The notes beneath the pieces are model-generated. The model searched no databases and was not told the DNA's origin. It saw only the letters and a program-made list of their open reading frames with translations. Positions 33,504-43,287 of a DNA stretch of 64,000 nt are shown here, piece after piece. The translations under genes were made by a program, and so were the position numbers. The stretch lies in assembly GCA_020348985.1 (NCBI GenBank), contig CP070761.1:1127093-1191092 (forward strand), read 5' to 3'. Source of the stretch: Candidatus Thorarchaeota archaeon (GTDB taxonomy: Archaea; Asgardarchaeota; Thorarchaeia; Thorarchaeales; Thorarchaeaceae). Every line of letters begins with the position of its first letter. Within the stretch, counting starts at the first letter, position 1.

Positions 33504-35015
33504 CTACGTGCCAATCCTTCGTCTCAGGACGAGAGCAAGCACAACTACCACACCGAAAGCTCCAGTCAACGGCAAAATCAGTGACATTGGCTGTGCCTGG
33601 CTTTCCAACGCGGCCTGAAGTGCGATCCCTGCGGCCCTCCACGAATCTGCAGTAGCAAGCAAATGACCTGCTATGTCAGCCAAATCCTGTCTGTGGTTCT
33701 CAAGAACTACATCGAGGTTTCTACTCGAGTCGAATTCCTCGACCATTTCAAAGAACGTGTTGGATAATAGAGAGTCGTGATTGGCCAGGTAATCGAAATC
33801 AACCAATGTTCCGTTGTCACTCAGTGCGTCCAAGTGTGTTAGGGCATTCTGACCTGCGACGAGAAAATCGGTCAAATCAAAGTCAGTCAGAAGTCTTGGG
33901 AGTGACTCCAGAGCTGTGCGGTATGAGAGATACTGGAGTGTCAACATGAACTCGAGAAACATCCCAAGATTGGCCAGACGATCAATCTGGTCCTCGAAGT
34001 TGTCATATTCCTCAATGTAGAGAGCAACACCTTCTGGAGTGATGTCATAGCTGAGCCCTCGGAATGCCTTTTCGCCGAAGTTTAGGAAGAAAGCGTCTTC
34101 GTCCGTAAAGGGGATATAGGATTCTTGCGCTCCAAGCAGCCTTGACGCCACAAACTCACCGAGTTCTGTTTGGAAGTCAGGTTTCGTCCCATTCTCAGGT
34201 TTTATTGTCGTCGTCCCGTAGGCAAATGCACCCCAAGCATTGTTCAGCTGAGAGTAGTTCATTGTGTAACGCCATCTGCCATCTTCGGGGTAACCAAAAT
34301 CGTCACCAAAGGCGCCTACACCAGGATCCAAAATCTCAACGGTCTCGCTCGTATCATTATACCCTATCGCCAGGACAGCATGACCTGAGACAGGGGCAGT
34401 TGTGTTTTGGAAAAGTCCATAGTCACGTAGGATTTGATAGTCGTCAGGGGGGAGATAGTAGGGATCAGTCCACAAGACAACGGGATATCCCTCGTCCAGC
34501 GTGTTCTTCATGATCTCAAACGCATCATTCCAGCCATGGATTGTATTGATGTCCGGATTCCACTGCGACCATAGCTCAATAGCTGTGTCGACCCAAGGAG
34601 AGGTCTCGCTAAGATAGAATTTCTGTTCTAGTCCGTAGAAGTCACAAATGGGGACCAATTGGCCGACCTGAATGTAAGCAGAACCAGCTAGGAACGTCAT
34701 TGTGTCGTTAAAGCGAATGTATGCTGCCGAGAATCCGATTCCCGATGCTGCAAAGAACTCGTGGAGAGTCAAAGGGACCTCTGCGCCGCCAAGAGCCATT
34801 GTAACTGCAGCCCAGAAACAGAATCCGCTAATCTCCTGCCATACATAAGGTGTATCCTGAATCAGTGCTGAACCATCAATGGAAATGGTATGGTCAGGAC
34901 CCGCAATTACAGGCCCTGACCTATTGTCGTGTAAGGAGATAGGAAACAATGATAGCGAAAGCAGTAGGAGGACCATGATGGTCATTCGTGTCTTAGGTGA
35001 ACGAACGACCACCAT
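33504..35015 (-). CDS. Surface-anchored C39-like (papain-fold) cysteine peptidase
   Basis: PYVWQEISGFCFWAAVTMAL (Cys), GHAVLAIGYND (His), ILDP (Asp); signal peptide; C-terminal TM + RRR. Confidence 0.7.
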   Translation of the reverse strand: MVVVRSPKTRMTIMVLLLLSLSLFPISLHDNRSGPVIAGPDHTISIDGSALIQDTPYVWQEISGFCFWAAVTMALGGAEVPLTLHEFFAASGIGFSAAYIRFNDTMTFLAGSAYIQVGQLVPICDFYGLEQKFYLSETSPWVDTAIELWSQWNPDINTIHGWNDAFEIMKNTLDEGYPVVLWTDPYYLPPDDYQILRDYGLFQNTTAPVSGHAVLAIGYNDTSETVEILDPGVGAFGDDFGYPEDGRWRYTMNYSQLNNAWGAFAYGTTTIKPENGTKPDFQTELGEFVASRLLGAQESYIPFTDEDAFFLNFGEKAFRGLSYDITPEGVALYIEEYDNFEDQIDRLANLGMFLEFMLTLQYLSYRTALESLPRLLTDFDLTDFLVAGQNALTHLDALSDNGTLVDFDYLANHDSLLSNTFFEMVEEFDSSRNLDVVLENHRQDLADIAGHLLATADSWRAAGIALQAALESQAQPMSLILPLTGAFGVVVVLALVLRRRIGT

Positions 35016-35181: not shown

Positions 35182-36870
35182 CTACACCTCAACCTTGCCC
35201 AGGCTTCTGACGCCCAAGAACAGCATCAGGCCACCCATGAGCAACAATGCCACTGGACCCATGATGGCTTGTGTGAACCAGAAACCATCTACACCGAAGA
35301 TGTTCTCAATGACGCGAAAGATGTTGACATCCAATGCGATACTGAAGAATATGTCGATGAAGAGGGGAGCAATCAGTGTAAACTGGGTCAACAACATGGA
35401 GCCTATTAGAACACTCTGATGGGCTGGAGACTTCGTGTCTTCATAGTTAGGGTTCTGAGCTGTCATGCCCATGCTTACCATGACAGCACCGCAAACTATG
35501 ATGTATGAAGATGCAATCATCTGCAACGCCATCAATGGCTCAAGTGCAAACATGACACTGACTACAACACTTGGAGCAAGACTTAGAGGAAAGGCCAGTA
35601 GGAATCCTGACGCGAGTCTGGCACGCATGAAGCGAGAAGCACCAGATGGTGCACTCCGGATTATCCAAAGCTGGTCCTTGCTCTCAAGGAATCCTGTTCC
35701 TGCGAATGGGAAGACTCCGACAACACCAATCATTATGCCAATCATTGGCAGAATATCCATGGCCGTGACGGTGTCACCATCGTAGACAGCAATCTGGGAC
35801 ATGATAATCGGAAGTACTACCGCCAGTACAACACCGTAGAGAATCTTTGAAATATTCTGAACCTTTCTGCCAAAGTCCTTCAGACTCACCACTGTCAACG
35901 CACCAAAAGATCCCTTGGCTGCTCTCCGGACTCCGCGTATCACAAAGTTCTCTCGACCTACAGTTGTGACGGTCTCAGTGCGCACACCGGCACTGATTGT
36001 GAAAACTCTGTCTGCAGCACTTAATGCAATTGGCACCCATACCAAGCCGAATGCTGCTGTTAGGAGTAGACTCGTCCACATGTCGAGCTGCAAAATCGCC
36101 CCAAAGCCCAGTATCTGAGAGCCAGTCAAACCAATACCATTGAAGGCTATCGCAATCCAGCTGACCAAGTCTGCTGGCCATGTGAATGGCATTAGCAGAA
36201 ATGCATTCATTCCTAGAATATCAGACAACACTGGCATGAAGAACATCACACCGTACATAGGCACTATCACAATCAGTGCAATAACGAAGGTCAATGCCTT
36301 AGCTATGTCGTTTCCGCGTGGTGAATCCCCAAGTCTTGCTTGGACCAATGCCGTCACGAAGTTGGAGAGCCAGATGGTTGAAAGAACCATGGCTGCAATC
36401 GCACTGTATACCAAAGCCTGACCTAGGAACGAAACTTCAAACGCTAGCATGAATGGAGATATCATTAGGGGAGCAAGTATCACTACAACCAATCCGTAGA
36501 ATGGTATCTTGCCAGCGAAAGTGCCAATGATTATGTCCTTTGTTCTCACGTTGTTTGAGAGGAAAATCTCCCATTGACCAATCTTAATCTCCTGTAGGGC
36601 GAAGGACAGTGGGTATAATAGCAACAATATCCACAGGAACAGCATTACTGTACGCATGAGTCCAGGGAACATAGACATCAACAGTAGTCGAATCTGTGAC
36701 ATTGGAATCAGCGACTGTATGATGAAGCCCATGATCGTTGGTGCCAAGTACGCGGCCCATACGATAGCTAATGCATACATGCTTGCCACGGTGACTGTTC
36801 TGTGGCTCCTGAAGCTCGAGGTCAAGACGTAGAACTCAGCCTTCGCGATGCTTAGCCACTTTCGGGTCAA
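35182..36870 (-). CDS. Putative ABC exporter permease (paralog 2)
   Basis: Multi-TM; directly downstream of the ABC ATPase. Confidence 0.78.
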   Translation of the reverse strand: MTRKWLSIAKAEFYVLTSSFRSHRTVTVASMYALAIVWAAYLAPTIMGFIIQSLIPMSQIRLLLMSMFPGLMRTVMLFLWILLLLYPLSFALQEIKIGQWEIFLSNNVRTKDIIIGTFAGKIPFYGLVVVILAPLMISPFMLAFEVSFLGQALVYSAIAAMVLSTIWLSNFVTALVQARLGDSPRGNDIAKALTFVIALIVIVPMYGVMFFMPVLSDILGMNAFLLMPFTWPADLVSWIAIAFNGIGLTGSQILGFGAILQLDMWTSLLLTAAFGLVWVPIALSAADRVFTISAGVRTETVTTVGRENFVIRGVRRAAKGSFGALTVVSLKDFGRKVQNISKILYGVVLAVVLPIIMSQIAVYDGDTVTAMDILPMIGIMIGVVGVFPFAGTGFLESKDQLWIIRSAPSGASRFMRARLASGFLLAFPLSLAPSVVVSVMFALEPLMALQMIASSYIIVCGAVMVSMGMTAQNPNYEDTKSPAHQSVLIGSMLLTQFTLIAPLFIDIFFSIALDVNIFRVIENIFGVDGFWFTQAIMGPVALLLMGGLMLFLGVRSLGKVEV

Positions 36871-36874
36871 GACA

Positions 36875-37645
36875 TCACCTCCAGGCCAGGAGTGCTTCGC
36901 GGTCTACTTGACCTCCAACTATCTGCAGGTAGGCTTCCTCAAGGTCGCTGACATGGGCTGCCTGGATTATATCCTCAGGAGAGCCAAGTGTGACTAGCTC
37001 ACCTTCGTTCAGAATCCCTATGACGTCACAGACATCTTCGGCGAAGCTTGTCATGTGCGTGCAGATGAAGAAGCTCGTCTCGGTCTCTTCTGCGAGGACA
37101 AGAATCAAGTCCTTCACAAGTGCACTTGCAGAGGGATCAAGCCTTGAAGTGGGCTCGTCCAGAAAGACTAGCTTTGGCTCATGTAGCAGAGTAGAGGCTA
37201 CCAACACTTTTTGCTTCATACCAGAAGAGTACGACTCCAGAAGGTCATCTTGTCTTCCCTCAAGACCAAGCATTCCAAGTAATGCGTCAATCCTCTTCAT
37301 GAGAGACTCGCCATTGTGGTCGTTGAGTGCGCCAATGAACTCAAGAAACTCAACAGCTGAGAGTTTCGAGTAAAGCCCCGGTGACTCAGGAAGGAGACCA
37401 GTGATTGCTTTGATCTCGTCTCTCTGGGTGTCAATATCAAGTCCGCAGACCTTTCCTCTCCCGCTCGTCTGTTTGAGCAAGCCAGACAGAATACGAACGG
37501 TGGTTGTCTTGCCGGCCCCATTAGGACCAAGGAAACCGAATCTGCTTCCAGCACGTACCTCTAGATCGAGGTCCACAACTGCGCGAACTGGCCCGAAGGT
37601 CTTGTTCAGCGCTTCTGTTTGAATCACTATACCGTTTCCGGTCAT
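36875..37645 (-). CDS. ABC transporter ATP-binding protein (ABC-2 type)
   Basis: GPNGAGKTT, YSSGMKQK, LDEPT. Confidence 0.95.
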   Translation of the reverse strand: MTGNGIVIQTEALNKTFGPVRAVVDLDLEVRAGSRFGFLGPNGAGKTTTVRILSGLLKQTSGRGKVCGLDIDTQRDEIKAITGLLPESPGLYSKLSAVEFLEFIGALNDHNGESLMKRIDALLGMLGLEGRQDDLLESYSSGMKQKVLVASTLLHEPKLVFLDEPTSRLDPSASALVKDLILVLAEETETSFFICTHMTSFAEDVCDVIGILNEGELVTLGSPEDIIQAAHVSDLEEAYLQIVGGQVDREALLAWR

Positions 37646-37774: not shown

Positions 37775-38383
37775 ATGGGACTACTCTCAATTCACGAATC
37801 AGTTGTCTGGTGGGAATACCAGCACGGTAAATCCACTGGCGATATATTCAGTGAGTATGAGAGACCCATGCCAACTCCGAAACATGTCCTTGATGTCTAC
37901 GGGCGTCTAATTGACGAAAAAACAAAGAGCGATGAGGACAAGAAGAAGGAGAAGGAAAAGATTCAGACAACAGAGCTGAAGAGTGCAGCTTACGTGTCAC
38001 GTGTTCTCAGCAGGGCGAAGGAAAAGATTGGCAAGGAGCTCAGTAATCATGCCAACAGCCATCGTCTTGATGTTGAGACAGTCTTGGATGACAAGGGGTA
38101 CTTGAAGGGCTTCGATTATCAGGCCAATACGGAAGTATTCATCATCTTCACTTTGGATTTAGGAGTGGTAGTCTGGTACAGGCACGACTCTTATGCTGGG
38201 AAGCTCTGTCCCGACTGTCCGAAGGAAGAGGAATGTAGACAGACACTTGATACGACTCTGCTTGAATACGACTTGACGCTTAGGCCGGATCAAGAAGAGC
38301 TTCACATGACACGGCAGTCGATTGCAATCTTCAACAAGCTTGCGGCCAAGGAAGTTCCTCGCTACAAGAGACAAGAAGAGTAA
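37775..38383 (+). CDS. Putative archaeal HTH transcriptional regulator with C-terminal Cys cluster
   Basis: Recognition-helix-like SAAYVSRVLSRAKEKI; VVWYRH..CPDCPKEEEC. Confidence 0.55.
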   Translation: MGLLSIHESVVWWEYQHGKSTGDIFSEYERPMPTPKHVLDVYGRLIDEKTKSDEDKKKEKEKIQTTELKSAAYVSRVLSRAKEKIGKELSNHANSHRLDVETVLDDKGYLKGFDYQANTEVFIIFTLDLGVVVWYRHDSYAGKLCPDCPKEEECRQTLDTTLLEYDLTLRPDQEELHMTRQSIAIFNKLAAKEVPRYKRQEE

Positions 38384-38396
38384 TGGATGTGAGATA

Positions 38397-39146
38397 ATGA
38401 GTTCGGGATACGATGAACGAGTGATTAAGCCTCCTTTGGAGTCAGTGGCGTTTGGTAGGGTATTCAAGCCCACAGCGTCGCTTCGCAACAAGTACTGGTT
38501 TATAGCCATCATCACCGCCCTTATCATGTATTTGACGACTATTGGAACATTCTTCGGAATAATGTACATGGTCTATTCAATCAATCAGACTCTGTTTCAA
38601 TGGCAGACCTGGTTCGACTCGTTCTGGGGACCAGTGAACTTCTGGTTCTGGGGAATTGCCTTGGTGATTCTGATACCTTACATTGTCGGCGTACCTATCT
38701 ACCTGAACAGGTTCGAGTACTCTGTAAGAGGCGAGTCCGGTGAAACGATGCCGGAGGTTTATGTCAAGAAGGGCATCATTAACGTAACCGTCAAGCATGT
38801 TCCTCTGAGAACGATTACCAATATATCAACAAGGACAGGACCGTTTGACAGACTCTTCAAGATTGGCAATGTTGAGATTCACACAGCAGGGCAATCTGGC
38901 AGCTACTATGAAGCAGGAAAGCCGGAGGAAAAAATCGAGGGAATCGTGTTCTACGAAGAACTTAGAGACTACATACTTGGTGAGATGCGGAAGCTGAAGG
39001 GCACTTATGCAGTTGGAACCGAGGTACTCACACCTGATGAGACTCCTATACCTGGAAACATAGACGAAGCTATTCTCACGACGCTTCGACAGCTTCGCGA
39101 CATCTTGAGAAGAATGGACGAGAAACTAGACCGAGGAGGATATTGA
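38397..39146 (+). CDS. bPH_2 (YdbS/YdbT-like) membrane PH-domain protein
   Basis: 2 TM then VKKGII..KHVPLRTITNISTRTGPFDRLFKIGNVEIHTAG. Confidence 0.85.
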   Translation: MSSGYDERVIKPPLESVAFGRVFKPTASLRNKYWFIAIITALIMYLTTIGTFFGIMYMVYSINQTLFQWQTWFDSFWGPVNFWFWGIALVILIPYIVGVPIYLNRFEYSVRGESGETMPEVYVKKGIINVTVKHVPLRTITNISTRTGPFDRLFKIGNVEIHTAGQSGSYYEAGKPEEKIEGIVFYEELRDYILGEMRKLKGTYAVGTEVLTPDETPIPGNIDEAILTTLRQLRDILRRMDEKLDRGGY

Positions 39147-39148
39147 AA

Positions 39149-39256
39149 ATGCGACCGTTGAGTAGACGCGTGCTGGCCATATTGAGCGTTATGGGCACCT
39201 TCTCGAGTCTCTTCATCTACTTTCTACTGATTAGTCTATCAGGAGGGTTCTCATAA
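39149..39256 (+). CDS. Single-TM micropeptide, 35 aa (MRPLSRRVLAILSVMGTFSSLFIYFLLISLSGGFS)
   Basis: GGAGG RBS; stop overlaps next ATG (TAATG); fills the gap between the two bPH_2 genes. Confidence 0.6.
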   Translation: MRPLSRRVLAILSVMGTFSSLFIYFLLISLSGGFS

Positions 39257-39996
39257 TGGGTAAGGAAAAGAGTAGCAAAGTAATCAAACCACCACTGGAG
39301 AGGATTGCAAGCGGGAAGGTCTTCAGACCAGCGAGAGCTTTCATCTACAAGGGATGGTTTGATGGCATCTTGGTTGCCATTGGAATTTGGTTGTTTGGAG
39401 TAGTGTGTGCGTTTGGAATCGGTTGGATTGTTGTCGTAGCAGAAGGCATTCTTGTTGAAGAATTCTGGGGAGCGGTAGCCTACTGGTGGGGACCCGCCAA
39501 TTTCTGGTATTGGCTGATAACGGCAATATGGCTGACCCCTGCGGTGATAATCTGGCCGTTCTATGTTCGAAGAATCGAATACTCTGTAATTGCAGAAAGC
39601 GGGAAAACAATGCCCGAGATCTACGTCAGGAAAGGCATAATCACGATTACTGAGAAGCACGTTCCGTTCCGCACGATCACAAACATCTCAAGTCGCGCCG
39701 GTCCGATTGACAGGCTCTTCGGAATAGGGAGCGTGTGGATCCAGACCGCGGGATACTCAGGCGGCGCTCAGGCGGGAGCAAAACCCGAGGAGAAGTTGGA
39801 GGGCATTCACATCTTTGAGGCGGTTAGGGACTTTGTCCTCAGAGAGCTTCGTAGGTTCAGAGACCCCTATGTGACTGGAACAGAAGTCGTATCTCCAAGA
39901 CCTGAAGCGGCCGTGACAGAAGGGACATCCTCGCAGGAAGAAATCCTTGGTGTTCTGAGAGAGATCAGAGATCTGCTCAGGCGCGAGAGAGAATAG
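39256..39996 (+). CDS. bPH_2 (YdbS/YdbT-like) membrane PH-domain protein, paralog
   Basis: KHVPFRTITNISSRAGPIDRLFGIGSVWIQTAG; shares VIKPPLE and ESG-TMPE with 38397-39146. Confidence 0.85.
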   Translation: MGKEKSSKVIKPPLERIASGKVFRPARAFIYKGWFDGILVAIGIWLFGVVCAFGIGWIVVVAEGILVEEFWGAVAYWWGPANFWYWLITAIWLTPAVIIWPFYVRRIEYSVIAESGKTMPEIYVRKGIITITEKHVPFRTITNISSRAGPIDRLFGIGSVWIQTAGYSGGAQAGAKPEEKLEGIHIFEAVRDFVLRELRRFRDPYVTGTEVVSPRPEAAVTEGTSSQEEILGVLREIRDLLRRERE

Positions 39997-40006
39997 CAGT
40001 CTAAGA

Positions 40007-40195
40007 GTGATGAGAATGGTTTCAGCAAGCAGAGTACTGGGAATCATCCTAGTGGTCGCGGGATTCGTTCTTATCCTCTTCCGAGTTGTCGAAGCCATAG
40101 CAGGATTCCCCTTCCTCATGGAGCAATTGCTATTGGGATTCTTCGTTTTGTTGATAGGGCTATCATTGATGGGGAGACTACGTAAGATTGGATAG
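40007..40195 (+). CDS. Small 2-TM membrane protein
   Basis: Homologous to N-terminal half of 40357-40626. Confidence 0.65.
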   Translation: MMRMVSASRVLGIILVVAGFVLILFRVVEAIAGFPFLMEQLLLGFFVLLIGLSLMGRLRKIG

Positions 40196-40207
40196 GAGAA
40201 ATGTAAA

Positions 40208-40312
40208 TTGAGTAGCAGAATCGTTGCGCGTTTCATTGTTTTACTGATTGGGATTATCCTGTTCGTGATTTTCCTGTTTGGGTTTTTCATGATGGGCGGA
40301 TCTTTCTCGTAG
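40208..40312 (+). CDS. Single-TM micropeptide, 34 aa (MSSRIVARFIVLLIGIILFVIFLFGFFMMGGSFS)
   Basis: TTG start after AGGAG; 17/31 identical to the peptide at 42239. Confidence 0.7.
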   Translation: MSSRIVARFIVLLIGIILFVIFLFGFFMMGGSFS

Positions 40313-40356
40313 AACTTCATGAATGGACGTGAGTATCTGACGGGATGTGGTGACGA

Positions 40357-40626
40357 TTGGTTTTAGGAAGACGAGACCGAGGAGTCGTTTTGGCTATCGC
40401 AGGACTCTTCCTAATGTTCTTTCAGATAATCGATCTAGTCATTGGAGGGTCCTACTTCGGCGGCTTTGGACTCCTGGGAGCATTCATCTTTCTGATTGGA
40501 TTGACCGTTGTCGGAAGAGCATTGACTAGCAGAAAGGCTGCATGGTATTCTACCTTCTTCATTGGCATTGTGTTGTTTGTGTTCTTCCTAGTCGTCTACC
40601 TAATGAAGGGAGGAATGCTACCCTAG
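40357..40626 (+). CDS. Small 3-TM protein: 2-TM unit fused to a micropeptide unit
   Basis: GGTGA RBS; N-half resembles 40007-40195 and C-terminal 34 aa resemble 40208-40312. Confidence 0.7.
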   Translation: MVLGRRDRGVVLAIAGLFLMFFQIIDLVIGGSYFGGFGLLGAFIFLIGLTVVGRALTSRKAAWYSTFFIGIVLFVFFLVVYLMKGGMLP

Positions 40627-40643
40627 GATAGGAGTCTGCTAGA

Positions 40644-40739
40644 ATGGTTACAGTTCAAAGAGTTGTCTTCAAAATCGCCCTCATGATTGTGGCAATTGTG
40701 CTTCTCCTGATAGGATTGTTCCTCTTTTCGATGTTCTAG
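40644..40739 (+). CDS. Single-TM micropeptide, 31 aa (MVTVQRVVFKIALMIVAIVLLLIGLFLFSMF)
   Basis: AGGAG RBS; R-x3-K then hydrophobic helix as in sibling peptides. Confidence 0.6.
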   Translation: MVTVQRVVFKIALMIVAIVLLLIGLFLFSMF

Positions 40740-40819
40740 GCGGGGTGGCCCAGTCTAGGCTCTTCAAACCCATGAGATAAAAGGGAGAGGAACGGTCTGT
40801 TTCCGGTTAGGATTCTACT

Positions 40820-42088
40820 ATGGCCATAGAGGACACACCATTCGTGTACAGAACACGATTAGACAAAAGCCTCTATGCATTCTATTACGCTACTGAGGGT
40901 TTCGCCACCACTGGAATCCTTACTTTTCTGCCCCTATACGTGAGGGATTATGTCCTTATCCCTGAGGCCCTTCTTGGGATCCTTTTGGCAATAGCAGCGA
41001 TTCCAGCATTCATTAAGGTTTTCTATGGCCTTGTTAGCGATTCTAGATCCATTGGTGGGATGGGGCACAGAAGACCCTATGTACTCCTCTCAGTTCCGAT
41101 GACTATTGGAGCATGGCTACTGTTTCCATTAGTCACCGAGGCGGTTCTGTTCACTACATTGGTATTTCTTGCCTCTGTTGGATTCTCGATAGGAGACACT
41201 GCTGTTGATGCTTGGGCAGTAGAGATAACTCCAACGAAAGAGAGGGGATCAATGATGGGGATTGCTTGGGGAGCTCAGGGGATTGCTTCGGTCATGGGAG
41301 CGCTTGCAACCACCATCGTTGGACCGGCATATGGATTCACAACAGCTTTCGCCTTGCTTGGGATAGTCCAAGGATTTGGTGGAATTGTCTGGTTTGTATT
41401 CGCAAGAGAGAAGCCTATTGTGCACAGGAAGACGATCCACGGTACACTAGGATCATTGAAAGAGGAACTGAGACACAGGTATCTTTGGCTTGCATTCTTG
41501 GCCTTCATATTCGGCGGCTTTGTGTTTGGAGTGGGCTCCAATTTCATGACCTTGTTCTTTGAAGATGTTGTAGGCGCATCCGAGACAGAGATAGGAGTGT
41601 TGGTTCTTGTCTGGTCTCTGATGTTCTTTGTGGGCGGAGCGATTGGTGGTTCAGTTTATGATAGATTCAAAGACCATCGGACAGGAATCTACACAATAGC
41701 GCCGGTCTATGCCATCTCACTGTTCATGCTCACCCTCAATCAACATGGGGCATATGAGCTGGCATACGCGACTGCGATTTTCTACGGCCTAGGCAGCGGA
41801 CTAACGACGGCAGCAGTCATGGGGTTTGCTGCTCGGATAACACCTGCCGTTGTCACTGGAACTGTATTTGCAGTTATTACGTCTTTTGTGAACATAGGCC
41901 GGGCAGGGCTTGGGAATGTGTACTTGGGCTACATGGTGACGAACTACGACTACACACTGGCGTTCACTTTAGGAGCACTCATCGCATTTCCCATTATCTT
42001 GTTAGCTCGATTCATTGATCACCCAAGACTTCATGAAGAGCTTGTTGAAAAACCTGCTATTGAAGAATCAACCTACGAAAATGAATAA
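40820..42088 (+). CDS. MFS transporter (BT1/AmpG-like)
   Basis: 12 TM; KVFYGLVSD..GHRRPY, DTAVDAWAVE. Confidence 0.88.
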   Translation: MAIEDTPFVYRTRLDKSLYAFYYATEGFATTGILTFLPLYVRDYVLIPEALLGILLAIAAIPAFIKVFYGLVSDSRSIGGMGHRRPYVLLSVPMTIGAWLLFPLVTEAVLFTTLVFLASVGFSIGDTAVDAWAVEITPTKERGSMMGIAWGAQGIASVMGALATTIVGPAYGFTTAFALLGIVQGFGGIVWFVFAREKPIVHRKTIHGTLGSLKEELRHRYLWLAFLAFIFGGFVFGVGSNFMTLFFEDVVGASETEIGVLVLVWSLMFFVGGAIGGSVYDRFKDHRTGIYTIAPVYAISLFMLTLNQHGAYELAYATAIFYGLGSGLTTAAVMGFAARITPAVVTGTVFAVITSFVNIGRAGLGNVYLGYMVTNYDYTLAFTLGALIAFPIILLARFIDHPRLHEELVEKPAIEESTYENE

Positions 42089-42118
42089 CCTCAAAGGCGA
42101 GAGAGTCGTAGTTCTGCC

Positions 42119-42226
42119 ATGACACCTACGAGACTCATCCTCAAGGTCATTCTTCTGGTCTTTGTCGTTTTGCTTCTGGTAATCATCCTGTTGATTCAGT
42201 TTGGTCTTGTTCCAGGCCTTTCCTAG
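42119..42226 (+). CDS. Single-TM micropeptide, 35 aa (MTPTRLILKVILLVFVVLLLVIILLIQFGLVPGLS)
   Basis: ATG..TAG; R-x3-K plus long aliphatic helix. Confidence 0.6.
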   Translation: MTPTRLILKVILLVFVVLLLVIILLIQFGLVPGLS

Positions 42227-42238
42227 GAGTGATGATAG

Positions 42239-42346
42239 ATGAGTGGGAGGATTGTCCTGAGAATCGCTGTTCTATTTCTGCTGATTCTATTACTCGCAAT
42301 CTTTTTGCTTGGTTACTTTGTGCTCGGTGGAGGACTTTTTGGCTAG
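42239..42346 (+). CDS. Single-TM micropeptide, 35 aa (MSGRIVLRIAVLFLLILLLAIFLLGYFVLGGGLFG)
   Basis: AGGAGTGA RBS; clear paralog of 40208-40312. Confidence 0.7.
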   Translation: MSGRIVLRIAVLFLLILLLAIFLLGYFVLGGGLFG

Positions 42347-42438: not shown

Positions 42439-43287
42439 CTATCCCAGATTCATACCGAGATCGTCCACAAGCTTCTCGAAATTGCGAAGACTTTGCTGGG
42501 CATTATCTCTGTCACGAACTTCGAATACGTACTGGATTGGTGATGGAGCAATCTCAGTCAAGAAGCGAAGCGGAGGCTCGAAGTCGATTGTACCCTCACC
42601 CACTATTTGATGTGAACCACATCGTTCAGACCAATCGTGAATGTGTACTACAGAGACAGATCTCCTATGTTTGTGGAAAACTGTCCAATCCTTGTCCTTG
42701 ATCCTGCCCGTTGAATCGTAGAGCTTTGGTATATCGACACATAGCTTTAGCCCTTCCGAAATGAGAGATTCAATCGCGTCGTGGACAAGCGGGGTCCAGT
42801 TGTGGTTCTCAAGGACAATATCAACGTCTGGAGAGGCATAGTCTATCAATTCAAGCAAGTTTCCAACCAGTGTGTTTAGGAAGTCGCCATAGAATGCCTT
42901 CACGAACTCATCTTTCATCATTCGTGCCTGTTTCAGGCTCGGTAAGACTCCAGCGTGGACAACGAGATTTGTACTTGAGACGCTAACACTTCGGGCAAAG
43001 TCGATGATCCTCTTCAGGTAATGAATGATGGCTCTCTTTACTGGTGCGTACGTAGCAAAGAGACTGATATCGTCACCAGGAGCGTGAAAACCCCAACCCA
43101 CTCTGAGCTCTTGGGAGAGGTCTCGCAGCTTTTTTTTCTGCTCTTGGCTGTACTTCTCTGGAGCGAAGCGAGGGACACCAATGTCAGGGACGATGGAGGT
43201 CCAGTTATTCCCAGATGCGTAGTTTAGGGCATCCTCAAGTGAGCTATCATAGACCACGTGGTAGGCCCGATTGCTTGGAAGTGGCAT
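42439..43287 (-). CDS. Sugar phosphate isomerase/epimerase (AP endonuclease 2 TIM barrel)
   Basis: FHAP, VVHAG, LENH, HIHD..HQIVGEGTIDF, FEV. Confidence 0.8.
   Translation of the reverse strand: MPLPSNRAYHVVYDSSLEDALNYASGNNWTSIVPDIGVPRFAPEKYSQEQKKKLRDLSQELRVGWGFHAPGDDISLFATYAPVKRAIIHYLKRIIDFARSVSVSSTNLVVHAGVLPSLKQARMMKDEFVKAFYGDFLNTLVGNLLELIDYASPDVDIVLENHNWTPLVHDAIESLISEGLKLCVDIPKLYDSTGRIKDKDWTVFHKHRRSVSVVHIHDWSERCGSHQIVGEGTIDFEPPLRFLTEIAPSPIQYVFEVRDRDNAQQSLRNFEKLVDDLGMNLG

Follow-up and report, generated by a model that had tools for sequence, protein, structure and literature searches.

In a stretch of 64,000 nucleotides from a Candidatus Thorarchaeota genome (contig CP070761.1, positions 1,127,093 to 1,191,092 of the forward strand; the whole stretch is called here the window), six copies of a micropeptide are encoded by short open reading frames (ORFs), labelled p1 to p6: five of them are free and the remaining one, p3, is fused to the end of a longer protein. 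Judged from their sequences, they belong to a real and conserved micropeptide family for which no model existed before and which occurs in one family of Thorarchaeota. These micropeptides are tied to arrays of genes coding for bPH_2 membrane proteins and are unusually amplified in the source genome. The genes are conserved, are under purifying selection, are linked in operons to the bPH_2 arrays and co-occur with them. We propose, tentatively and with somewhat less than even confidence, that the micropeptides are accessory transmembrane (TM) subunits, with the N-terminus inside and the C-terminus outside, of a YdbS/YdbT-like bPH_2 assembly, a role in which binding is inferred.

Proteins of fewer than 50 residues are routinely missed in archaeal genomes. 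The present family is recognisable from its gene position, evolves under selection and is associated with bPH_2 proteins, whose own role is only beginning to emerge: they are leaderless-bacteriocin exporters and part of the sigma-W stress regulon. A practical consequence is that gene callers should add the ORF of 30-35 codons found behind Thorarchaeal bPH_2 arrays.

Conservation and linkage to bPH_2 arrays

Orthologues of the bPH_2 proteins are present in 49 of 60 genomes of the same family, mostly as tandem arrays of two to five genes, and 40 bPH_2 loci from these genomes were compared. A recurrent block is found across the fetched loci, composed of an ABC permease and ATPase, the gene of a 202-aa protein followed by one to five bPH_2 genes, and a TIM-barrel gene at the other border. 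The version of this block that bears a micropeptide, placed between two to five bPH_2 genes and the TIM-barrel gene, occurs in six genera. A strongly hydrophobic ORF of 30-34 aa stands behind the last bPH_2 gene in 20 of the 27 multi-copy loci with downstream sequence and in none of the eight true single-copy loci; as a rule, it begins -4 to +18 nt past the stop of that bPH_2 gene. The peptide start lies between -20 and +24 nt from the preceding stop in 20 cases out of 25, six of which overlap that stop, and frames of 30-35 codons are held at the same position in more than 25 genomes.

The association is also seen for whole genomes. Of the 37 genomes in which bPH_2 matches number two or more, 22 contain family matches (E<=1e-3), versus 0 of 23 genomes with one at most (Fisher 7e-7, a value that overstates the support because the genomes are related and not independent). 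For instance, a genome of the same genus, G002, has two tandem micropeptides ahead of the TIM-barrel gene, as p5 and p6 are in the window, with neither an MFS gene nor two-TM units; p6 itself occupies the place that, by synteny, the terminal micropeptide has in relatives. In an array of genus g6, a micropeptide followed by a 70-aa two-TM ORF is found after bPH_2 copy 1. A fused micropeptide was also considered in genus g4 and rejected, since the long last bPH_2 copy has no hydrophobic tail.

An initial annotation of this DNA had named synteny with bPH_2 and ABC genes only as something to check. The bPH_2 array is the real conserved partner. The ABC operon is found as well at loci with a single bPH_2 copy and no micropeptides.

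Coding signals and peptide anatomy

All six micropeptide ORFs exist on the plus strand at the coordinates and with the motifs given by the initial annotation. Nei-Gojobori counts were made on orthologue pairs, and the pairs with unsaturated synonymous sites gave ratios of nonsynonymous to synonymous substitution rates (dN/dS) of 0.06-0.34; the proportion of synonymous differences (pS) is far above that of nonsynonymous ones (pN), and second codon positions change least. Shine-Dalgarno motifs of the GGAG type precede p1, p2, p4 and p6, as had been described; in p1 the motif is GAGGAGG, 8 nt upstream, and its stop overlaps the ATG of the downstream bPH_2 gene (TAATG), so that this coupling also holds. 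In the family as a whole, GGAG or GAGG is present at -18 to -4 in 15 of 30 starts, against a background of 9%. Reading frames, Shine-Dalgarno motifs and purifying selection, features on which the initial annotation had made its case depend, are all conserved in related genomes.

The family alignment (A2, 29 rows) shows a conserved basic residue near the N-terminus and a core of about 22 residues. The uncharged core spans 16-28 residues (mean 22), with flank charges of +1.9 on the N-terminal side and 0 on the C-terminal side; the mean grand average of hydropathy (GRAVY) is 1.93 (range 1.0-2.5) and the net charge is about +1.9. From these features, and following the positive-inside rule, each peptide is predicted to form one continuous TM helix oriented N-in/C-out. 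Conservation follows a 100-degree periodicity on a face formed by G/A, F, L and Y (i, i+4, i+8, i+11), with a helical conservation moment of 5.4 compared with a shuffle mean of 2.3, a value reached by 0.6% of shuffles. The conservation of a single helix face suggests a specific partner.

Four copies do end in Gly-Gly plus 2-4 residues. However, this C-terminal motif, which had been taken as a mark of the family, is confined to those copies, all from the source genome, among 38 members. What is semi-conserved is one Gly located 2-6 residues before the end (20 of 38 members, versus 26% expected), and a helix-ending residue explains it more simply than a processing site. The idea that the ORFs encode precursors of exported archaeocin-like or signal-like peptides is not supported, given the restriction of Gly-Gly to one genome, the prediction of one continuous TM helix and the mean hydropathy of the family: the peptides are far too hydrophobic for diffusible exported peptides.

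Sequence statistics and database searches

Similarity among the paralogues was evaluated by composition-preserving shuffles. The highest z scores were obtained for p2 and p6 (9.1; these two are 50% identical) and for p2 and p3 (9.0), followed by p5 and p6 (4.9) and by p4 against p2, p5 or p6 (about 3.2). With these values, and with its conservation beyond the source genome, the initial view of a gene family and not noise is sustained. No significant likeness was detected between p1 and the other five peptides of the window (z <= 2.9). Instead, p1 matches a 31-aa ORF located directly after the last bPH_2 gene at a locus of another genus (L039; z 6.4, 0/5000 shuffles), and its sequence places it in a separate sub-family. 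The peptides of L127, L128 and L129 give z scores of 9-10 with p4, which is the window member nearest to the dispersed copies, those found away from bPH_2 genes in genera g3 and g8.

A profile built from the peptides of relatives only was run on the 73,975 six-frame ORFs of the 3.16-Mb genome. With composition correction off, p2, p3, p4, p5 and p6 rank 2, 3, 5, 13 and 15, and p1 only 177; with the correction on, p2 is the one copy that still scores (E 0.02, rank 1). Taken by themselves, sequence statistics are thus modest for peptides this short and hydrophobic, and it is the comparative evidence that decides. No further copies of the family were found elsewhere in the source genome by a genome-wide search. 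The top uncorrected match of the profile, outside the window (G000:C1:1910423-1910917, minus strand), is a frame of 165 codons that repeats in tandem an L-, G- and F-rich unit of about 15 residues; it was rejected as an artefact, probably the off-frame reading of a DNA tandem repeat.

None of the 29 members reaches the cut-off of any Pfam or NCBIfam family, the best E values (0.007-0.05) being scattered over unrelated families. When 1.84 billion representative proteins were searched exhaustively with the profile, only two matches came up, both of 32 aa, one of them identical to the peptide of a relative. No conserved micropeptide family described for Asgard archaea was found in a literature search.

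Fusion of a micropeptide to a two-TM protein

Ahead of p2 lies a 62-aa ORF for a small two-TM protein without any Pfam family. Both share one frame, split by a single TAG (40193-40195). The 62-aa ORF resembles the N-terminal part of the 89-aa ORF that ends in p3 (z 10 by shuffles), and the 89-aa sequence shows 40% identity, over residues 2-87, to the region 40007-40312 when the latter is read across the TAG. The 89-aa ORF is a tandem paralogue of that region: in the DNA alignment, a 27-nt gap takes out the spacer together with the TAG and the tail of the two-TM unit, and what was a TTG start motif remains in frame in the fusion. Read-through of the TAG as pyrrolysine was considered and discarded, PylS not being above cut-off in the genome (20.5 bits versus 178), and the TAG is accordingly read as a stop.

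As a Rosetta-stone type of argument, the fusion suggests that the two-TM protein and the micropeptide work together. The 89-aa ORF found only itself among 5.8 billion proteins, and likeness to the 70-aa two-TM ORF of genus g6 is marginal (z 0.9-3.6).

A 57-aa two-TM ORF outside the bPH_2 locus of genome G019 (L002 1471-1644, minus strand) shows weak likeness to the 62-aa ORF and to the N-terminal part of the 89-aa ORF (E 2.7e-4). It may be a sign that small two-TM proteins form a wider family.

A possible accessory helix of bPH_2 assemblies

Two of the features expected of a bPH_2 accessory subunit, operonic linkage to bPH_2 arrays and co-occurrence with them, are found. According to our proposal, the micropeptides would be made from the same operon as the tandem, YdbS-like bPH_2 proteins, which consist of two TM helices and a PH domain. 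Each peptide would add one TM helix to a hetero-oligomeric bPH_2 assembly, and also to the small two-TM proteins, packing through the conserved face of G/A, F, L and Y. In the source genome this module has been amplified to five free copies and one copy fused to a two-TM protein. Physical binding is presumed, and the complex may have an envelope or peptide-handling role, by analogy with YdbST and DdEF. YdbS/YdbT-like proteins (DdE/DdF, LnqC/D and aureocin Orf7/8) are required for the export of leaderless bacteriocins, and in the model of DdE/DdF four units, each with two TM helices and a PH domain, contribute their helices to a ring (PMC8657885, PMC9865063). The Thorarchaeal arrays of two to five single bPH_2 units fit such a ring architecture. 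A 1:1 complex prediction of bPH_2 copy 2 (44-row alignment) with p6 (29-row alignment) gave a score of 0.01 (mark 0.32) and is used neither for nor against the proposal.

A bolder version, which we consider unlikely, is that these would be the first known micropeptide subunits of a PH-domain channel of the YdbS/YdbT type, in which a modular helix plugs or completes the ring formed by two to five single-unit bPH_2 proteins. If this were true, a machine for peptide handling or envelope stress that is shared with Firmicutes would have been elaborated in a way specific to Asgard archaea. If the micropeptides are subunits, they would offer a handle on how YdbS/YdbT-type complexes are built, and would show that archaea elaborated the module independently.

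Several observations weigh against the accessory-subunit proposal. In six g3 genomes and one g8 genome, members of the family are flanked by genes for soluble enzymes and lie apart from bPH_2 genes (29-row profile on the 60 genomes); when the profile is made from the six window peptides only, the best-matching sequences in relatives are these dispersed copies, the inner-array peptide of genus g6 being next. The arrays of genus g4, with three bPH_2 copies, and some loci of g6 and g11 have no micropeptide ORF. In families f12, f18, f21 and f22 the pair formed by the 202-aa protein and bPH_2 is kept, with no micropeptide in the 17 loci examined. Besides, the number of micropeptide genes does not follow that of bPH_2 copies one to one.

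The dispersed copies also leave room for an autonomous small membrane protein, related to membrane stress, lipid packing or immunity, which would be co-regulated with the bPH_2/ABC module without being a stoichiometric subunit of it. This is possible, if somewhat unlikely, and an immunity or envelope-stress role had been among the suggestions of the initial annotation. The range of zero to six micropeptides per genome and their patchy distribution within the family agree with it, and so do two precedents: circular bacteriocins have immunity proteins described in the literature as small, cationic and hydrophobic (PMC6131525), and in B. subtilis the sigma-W envelope-stress regulon includes ydbST (PMC3498285). 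In a language-model atlas, the nearest neighbours of p6 are the enterobacterial YoaK, YncL and YohP, at 0.76-0.86, which is below the level that counts. Against an autonomous protein stand the tight coupling of its translation to that of the last bPH_2 gene, seen in six genera, the strict genome-level co-occurrence with multi-copy arrays, the single conserved helix face, which suggests a specific partner, and the natural fusion to a two-TM protein.

It is improbable that the peptides are membrane-active toxins, either similar to type I toxins or to very hydrophobic bacteriocins, which the bPH_2 and ABC proteins export or neutralise. Copies that are tandem, dispersed, lineage-restricted and variable in number are also typical of type I toxins, and a C39_2-like peptidase is encoded in the adjacent ABC operon here and in relatives. 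The locus also mirrors leaderless-bacteriocin clusters in its small peptides, YdbS/T-like bPH_2 proteins and ABC transporter (PMC8657885, PMC7332713, PMC10311245). However, leaderless bacteriocins are cationic and accumulate in active form in the cytoplasm (PMC13262744), whereas the micropeptides are single hydrophobic helices with a GRAVY of 1.0-2.5 and a net charge of about +2. Moreover, their genes are at the 3' end of the bPH_2 operon instead of forming a separate structural-gene unit, and Gly-Gly is not conserved.

Modulation of the neighbouring MFS or ABC transporters by regulin-like peptides (of the AcrZ or sarcolipin type), another suggestion of the initial annotation, appears very improbable. 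In the source genome p4 and p5 flank the MFS gene, and an ABC operon adjoins nearly all loci of this kind. However, MFS orthologues with 55-60% identity are found in G066, G053, G024 and G056 on other contigs and in unrelated contexts, without such ORFs, and relatives carry micropeptides and no MFS gene; the MFS gene is a local insertion in the source genome. The ABC operon, in turn, is divergently transcribed and also stands at peptide-free loci. Finally, that these are non-functional ORFs open by chance in T-rich spacer DNA is hardly credible: although the frames are short and HMMER scores collapse on composition correction, frame retention in relatives, the excess of pS over pN with its codon-position pattern, the enrichment in Shine-Dalgarno motifs and the helical periodicity of conservation all speak against it.

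Locus layout and neighbouring genes

The plus-strand genes at 37.8-42.4 kb follow the order 202-aa protein, bPH_2 copy 1, p1, bPH_2 copy 2, 62-aa ORF, p2, 89-aa ORF (with p3), p4, MFS, p5 and p6. Their coordinates are collected in Table 1, together with those of the flanking genes and of the dispersed family members.

Table 1. Micropeptide ORFs, neighbouring genes and dispersed family members (positions refer to the window unless a locus is named).
Feature	Position	Strand	Remarks
p1, 35-aa micropeptide	39149-39256	+	Between two bPH_2 genes; start 2 nt past upstream stop
p2, 34-aa micropeptide	40208-40312	+	TTG start; AGGAG 9 nt upstream
p3, fused micropeptide copy	40522-40626	+	Last 34 codons of 89-aa ORF
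89-aa three-TM ORF	40357-40626	+	Natural fusion of two-TM unit and micropeptide
p4, 31-aa micropeptide	40644-40739	+	Nearest kin are dispersed copies of genus g3
p5, 35-aa micropeptide	42119-42226	+	Directly behind MFS gene; z 5-6 versus g3 copies
p6, 35-aa micropeptide	42239-42346	+	Final gene ahead of convergent TIM-barrel gene
62-aa two-TM small protein	40007-40195	+	Ends in TAG in frame with p2
bPH_2 membrane protein, copy 1	38322-39146	+	Two TM helices and bacterial PH domain; PF03703, 39.9 bits, cut-off 22
bPH_2 membrane protein, copy 2	39256-39996	+	PF03703, 37.7 bits, cut-off 22
202-aa protein	37775-38383	+	Always precedes bPH_2 gene(s); probably helix-turn-helix regulator (synteny in five families; structure model)
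MFS_1/BT1 transporter	40820-42088	+	Inserted in locus in source genome only
ABC ATPase (36875-37645) and permease (35182-36870)	35182-37645	-	Divergent; conserved beside bPH_2 locus with or without micropeptides
Xylose-isomerase-like TIM-barrel protein	42439-43287	-	Convergent; conserved right border of locus
Peptidase_C39_2-like protein	33504-35015	-	In neighbouring ABC operon; 27.4 bits, cut-off 24
Dispersed members, genera g3/g8	L127 3175-3279; L128 3102-3203; L129 3165-3263, 3326-3421		
Dispersed members, genera g3/g8	L130 2842-3015; L131 3010-3117		

The 202-aa protein, which has no Pfam family, is encoded directly upstream of the bPH_2 genes in five families of the phylum. Its AlphaFold2 model has a predicted local distance difference test score (pLDDT) of 93.5, and a Foldseek search of this model against PDB gave no match at E<=0.001. 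The N-terminal region of about 90 residues resembles sigma region 4 and helix-turn-helix (HTH) domains of the LuxR type (Z 5-6), a resemblance that is weak and consistent over dozens of entries. The HTH part is followed by a beta-sheet domain, and H137, C145, C148 and C154 are invariant. From the model, the protein could regulate the locus as a sensor of metal or redox state, and the conserved unit looks like a regulator plus membrane bPH_2 proteins.

Homologues of the C39_2-like peptidase stand beside the permease in the loci of G002, g6 and g8 (for instance L031 1-1263, minus strand), where the peptides have no Gly-Gly. At the g3 loci that were fetched, this peptidase is replaced by a second ABC ATPase. 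The genes that neighbour the dispersed micropeptide copies code for peptidases M3 and S9, a radical S-adenosylmethionine (radical-SAM) enzyme, a saccharopine dehydrogenase and a pyridoxal-phosphate enzyme (PALP).

Comparison with known systems

Type I toxins, such as those of the Ldr, TisB, Fst and Ibs class, are small hydrophobic single-helix peptides, encoded in multiple copies that are tandem or dispersed and restricted to particular lineages. The micropeptides are likewise small hydrophobic membrane peptides but, unlike these toxins, most of their copies are translationally coupled to an upstream protein gene; the 20 coupled starts out of 25 argue against an own transcription unit for those copies.

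Peptides of the AcrZ, KdpF, CydX and MgtS class have about 30-50 aa and a single TM helix, and their genes belong to the operon of the partner complex or adjoin it. The micropeptides are like them in size, in their single TM helix and in gene placement. However, there is no sequence relation, the proposed partner belongs to a different family, and the conserved linkage to a transporter gene that would be expected of an AcrZ-type regulin was found neither for the MFS nor for the ABC genes.

In double-glycine peptides processed by C39 peptidases, Gly-Gly ends an N-terminal leader, whereas in the four source-genome copies it is placed 2-4 residues from the C-terminus. The C39_2-like protein of the locus is a separate protein that also accompanies peptides devoid of Gly-Gly.

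Two features of the leaderless-bacteriocin clusters of the enterocin DD14 and lacticin Q type are present at the locus, namely the bPH_2 proteins and the adjacent ABC transporter. However, the structural peptides of these clusters are cationic, soluble or amphipathic, have 27-70 aa and are active in the cytoplasm before export (PMC13262744), a description that does not suit the uncharged cores, mean hydropathy and charge of the micropeptides. The immunity proteins of circular and leaderless bacteriocins, such as AucIA/AucIB and DdD, are also small, cationic and hydrophobic, and are encoded beside bPH_2 and ABC genes (PMC6131525, PMC7332713, PMC13262744). DdD differs in having three TM helices and a cytoplasmic helix; in addition, no cognate bacteriocin gene is seen at the Thorarchaeal locus and there is no sequence similarity.

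The closest comparison is with the YdbS/YdbT-type systems, which include B. subtilis ydbST, DdE/DdF of enterocin DD14, LnqC/LnqD of lacticin Q and Orf7/Orf8 of aureocin A53. A micropeptide partner is not mentioned in the literature consulted on these bacterial systems, and a gene for a bacteriocin-like soluble peptide is not evident at the Thorarchaeal locus. The likeness lies in the two-TM hairpin joined to a PH domain and in the tandem genes beside an ABC transporter, as in the bacterial systems needed to export membrane-active peptides or to resist them (PMC8657885, PMC9865063). However, instead of YdbS and a three-repeat YdbT, the Thorarchaeal loci have two to five separate single-domain genes, and these are archaeal and preceded by a conserved HTH-like protein of 202 aa.

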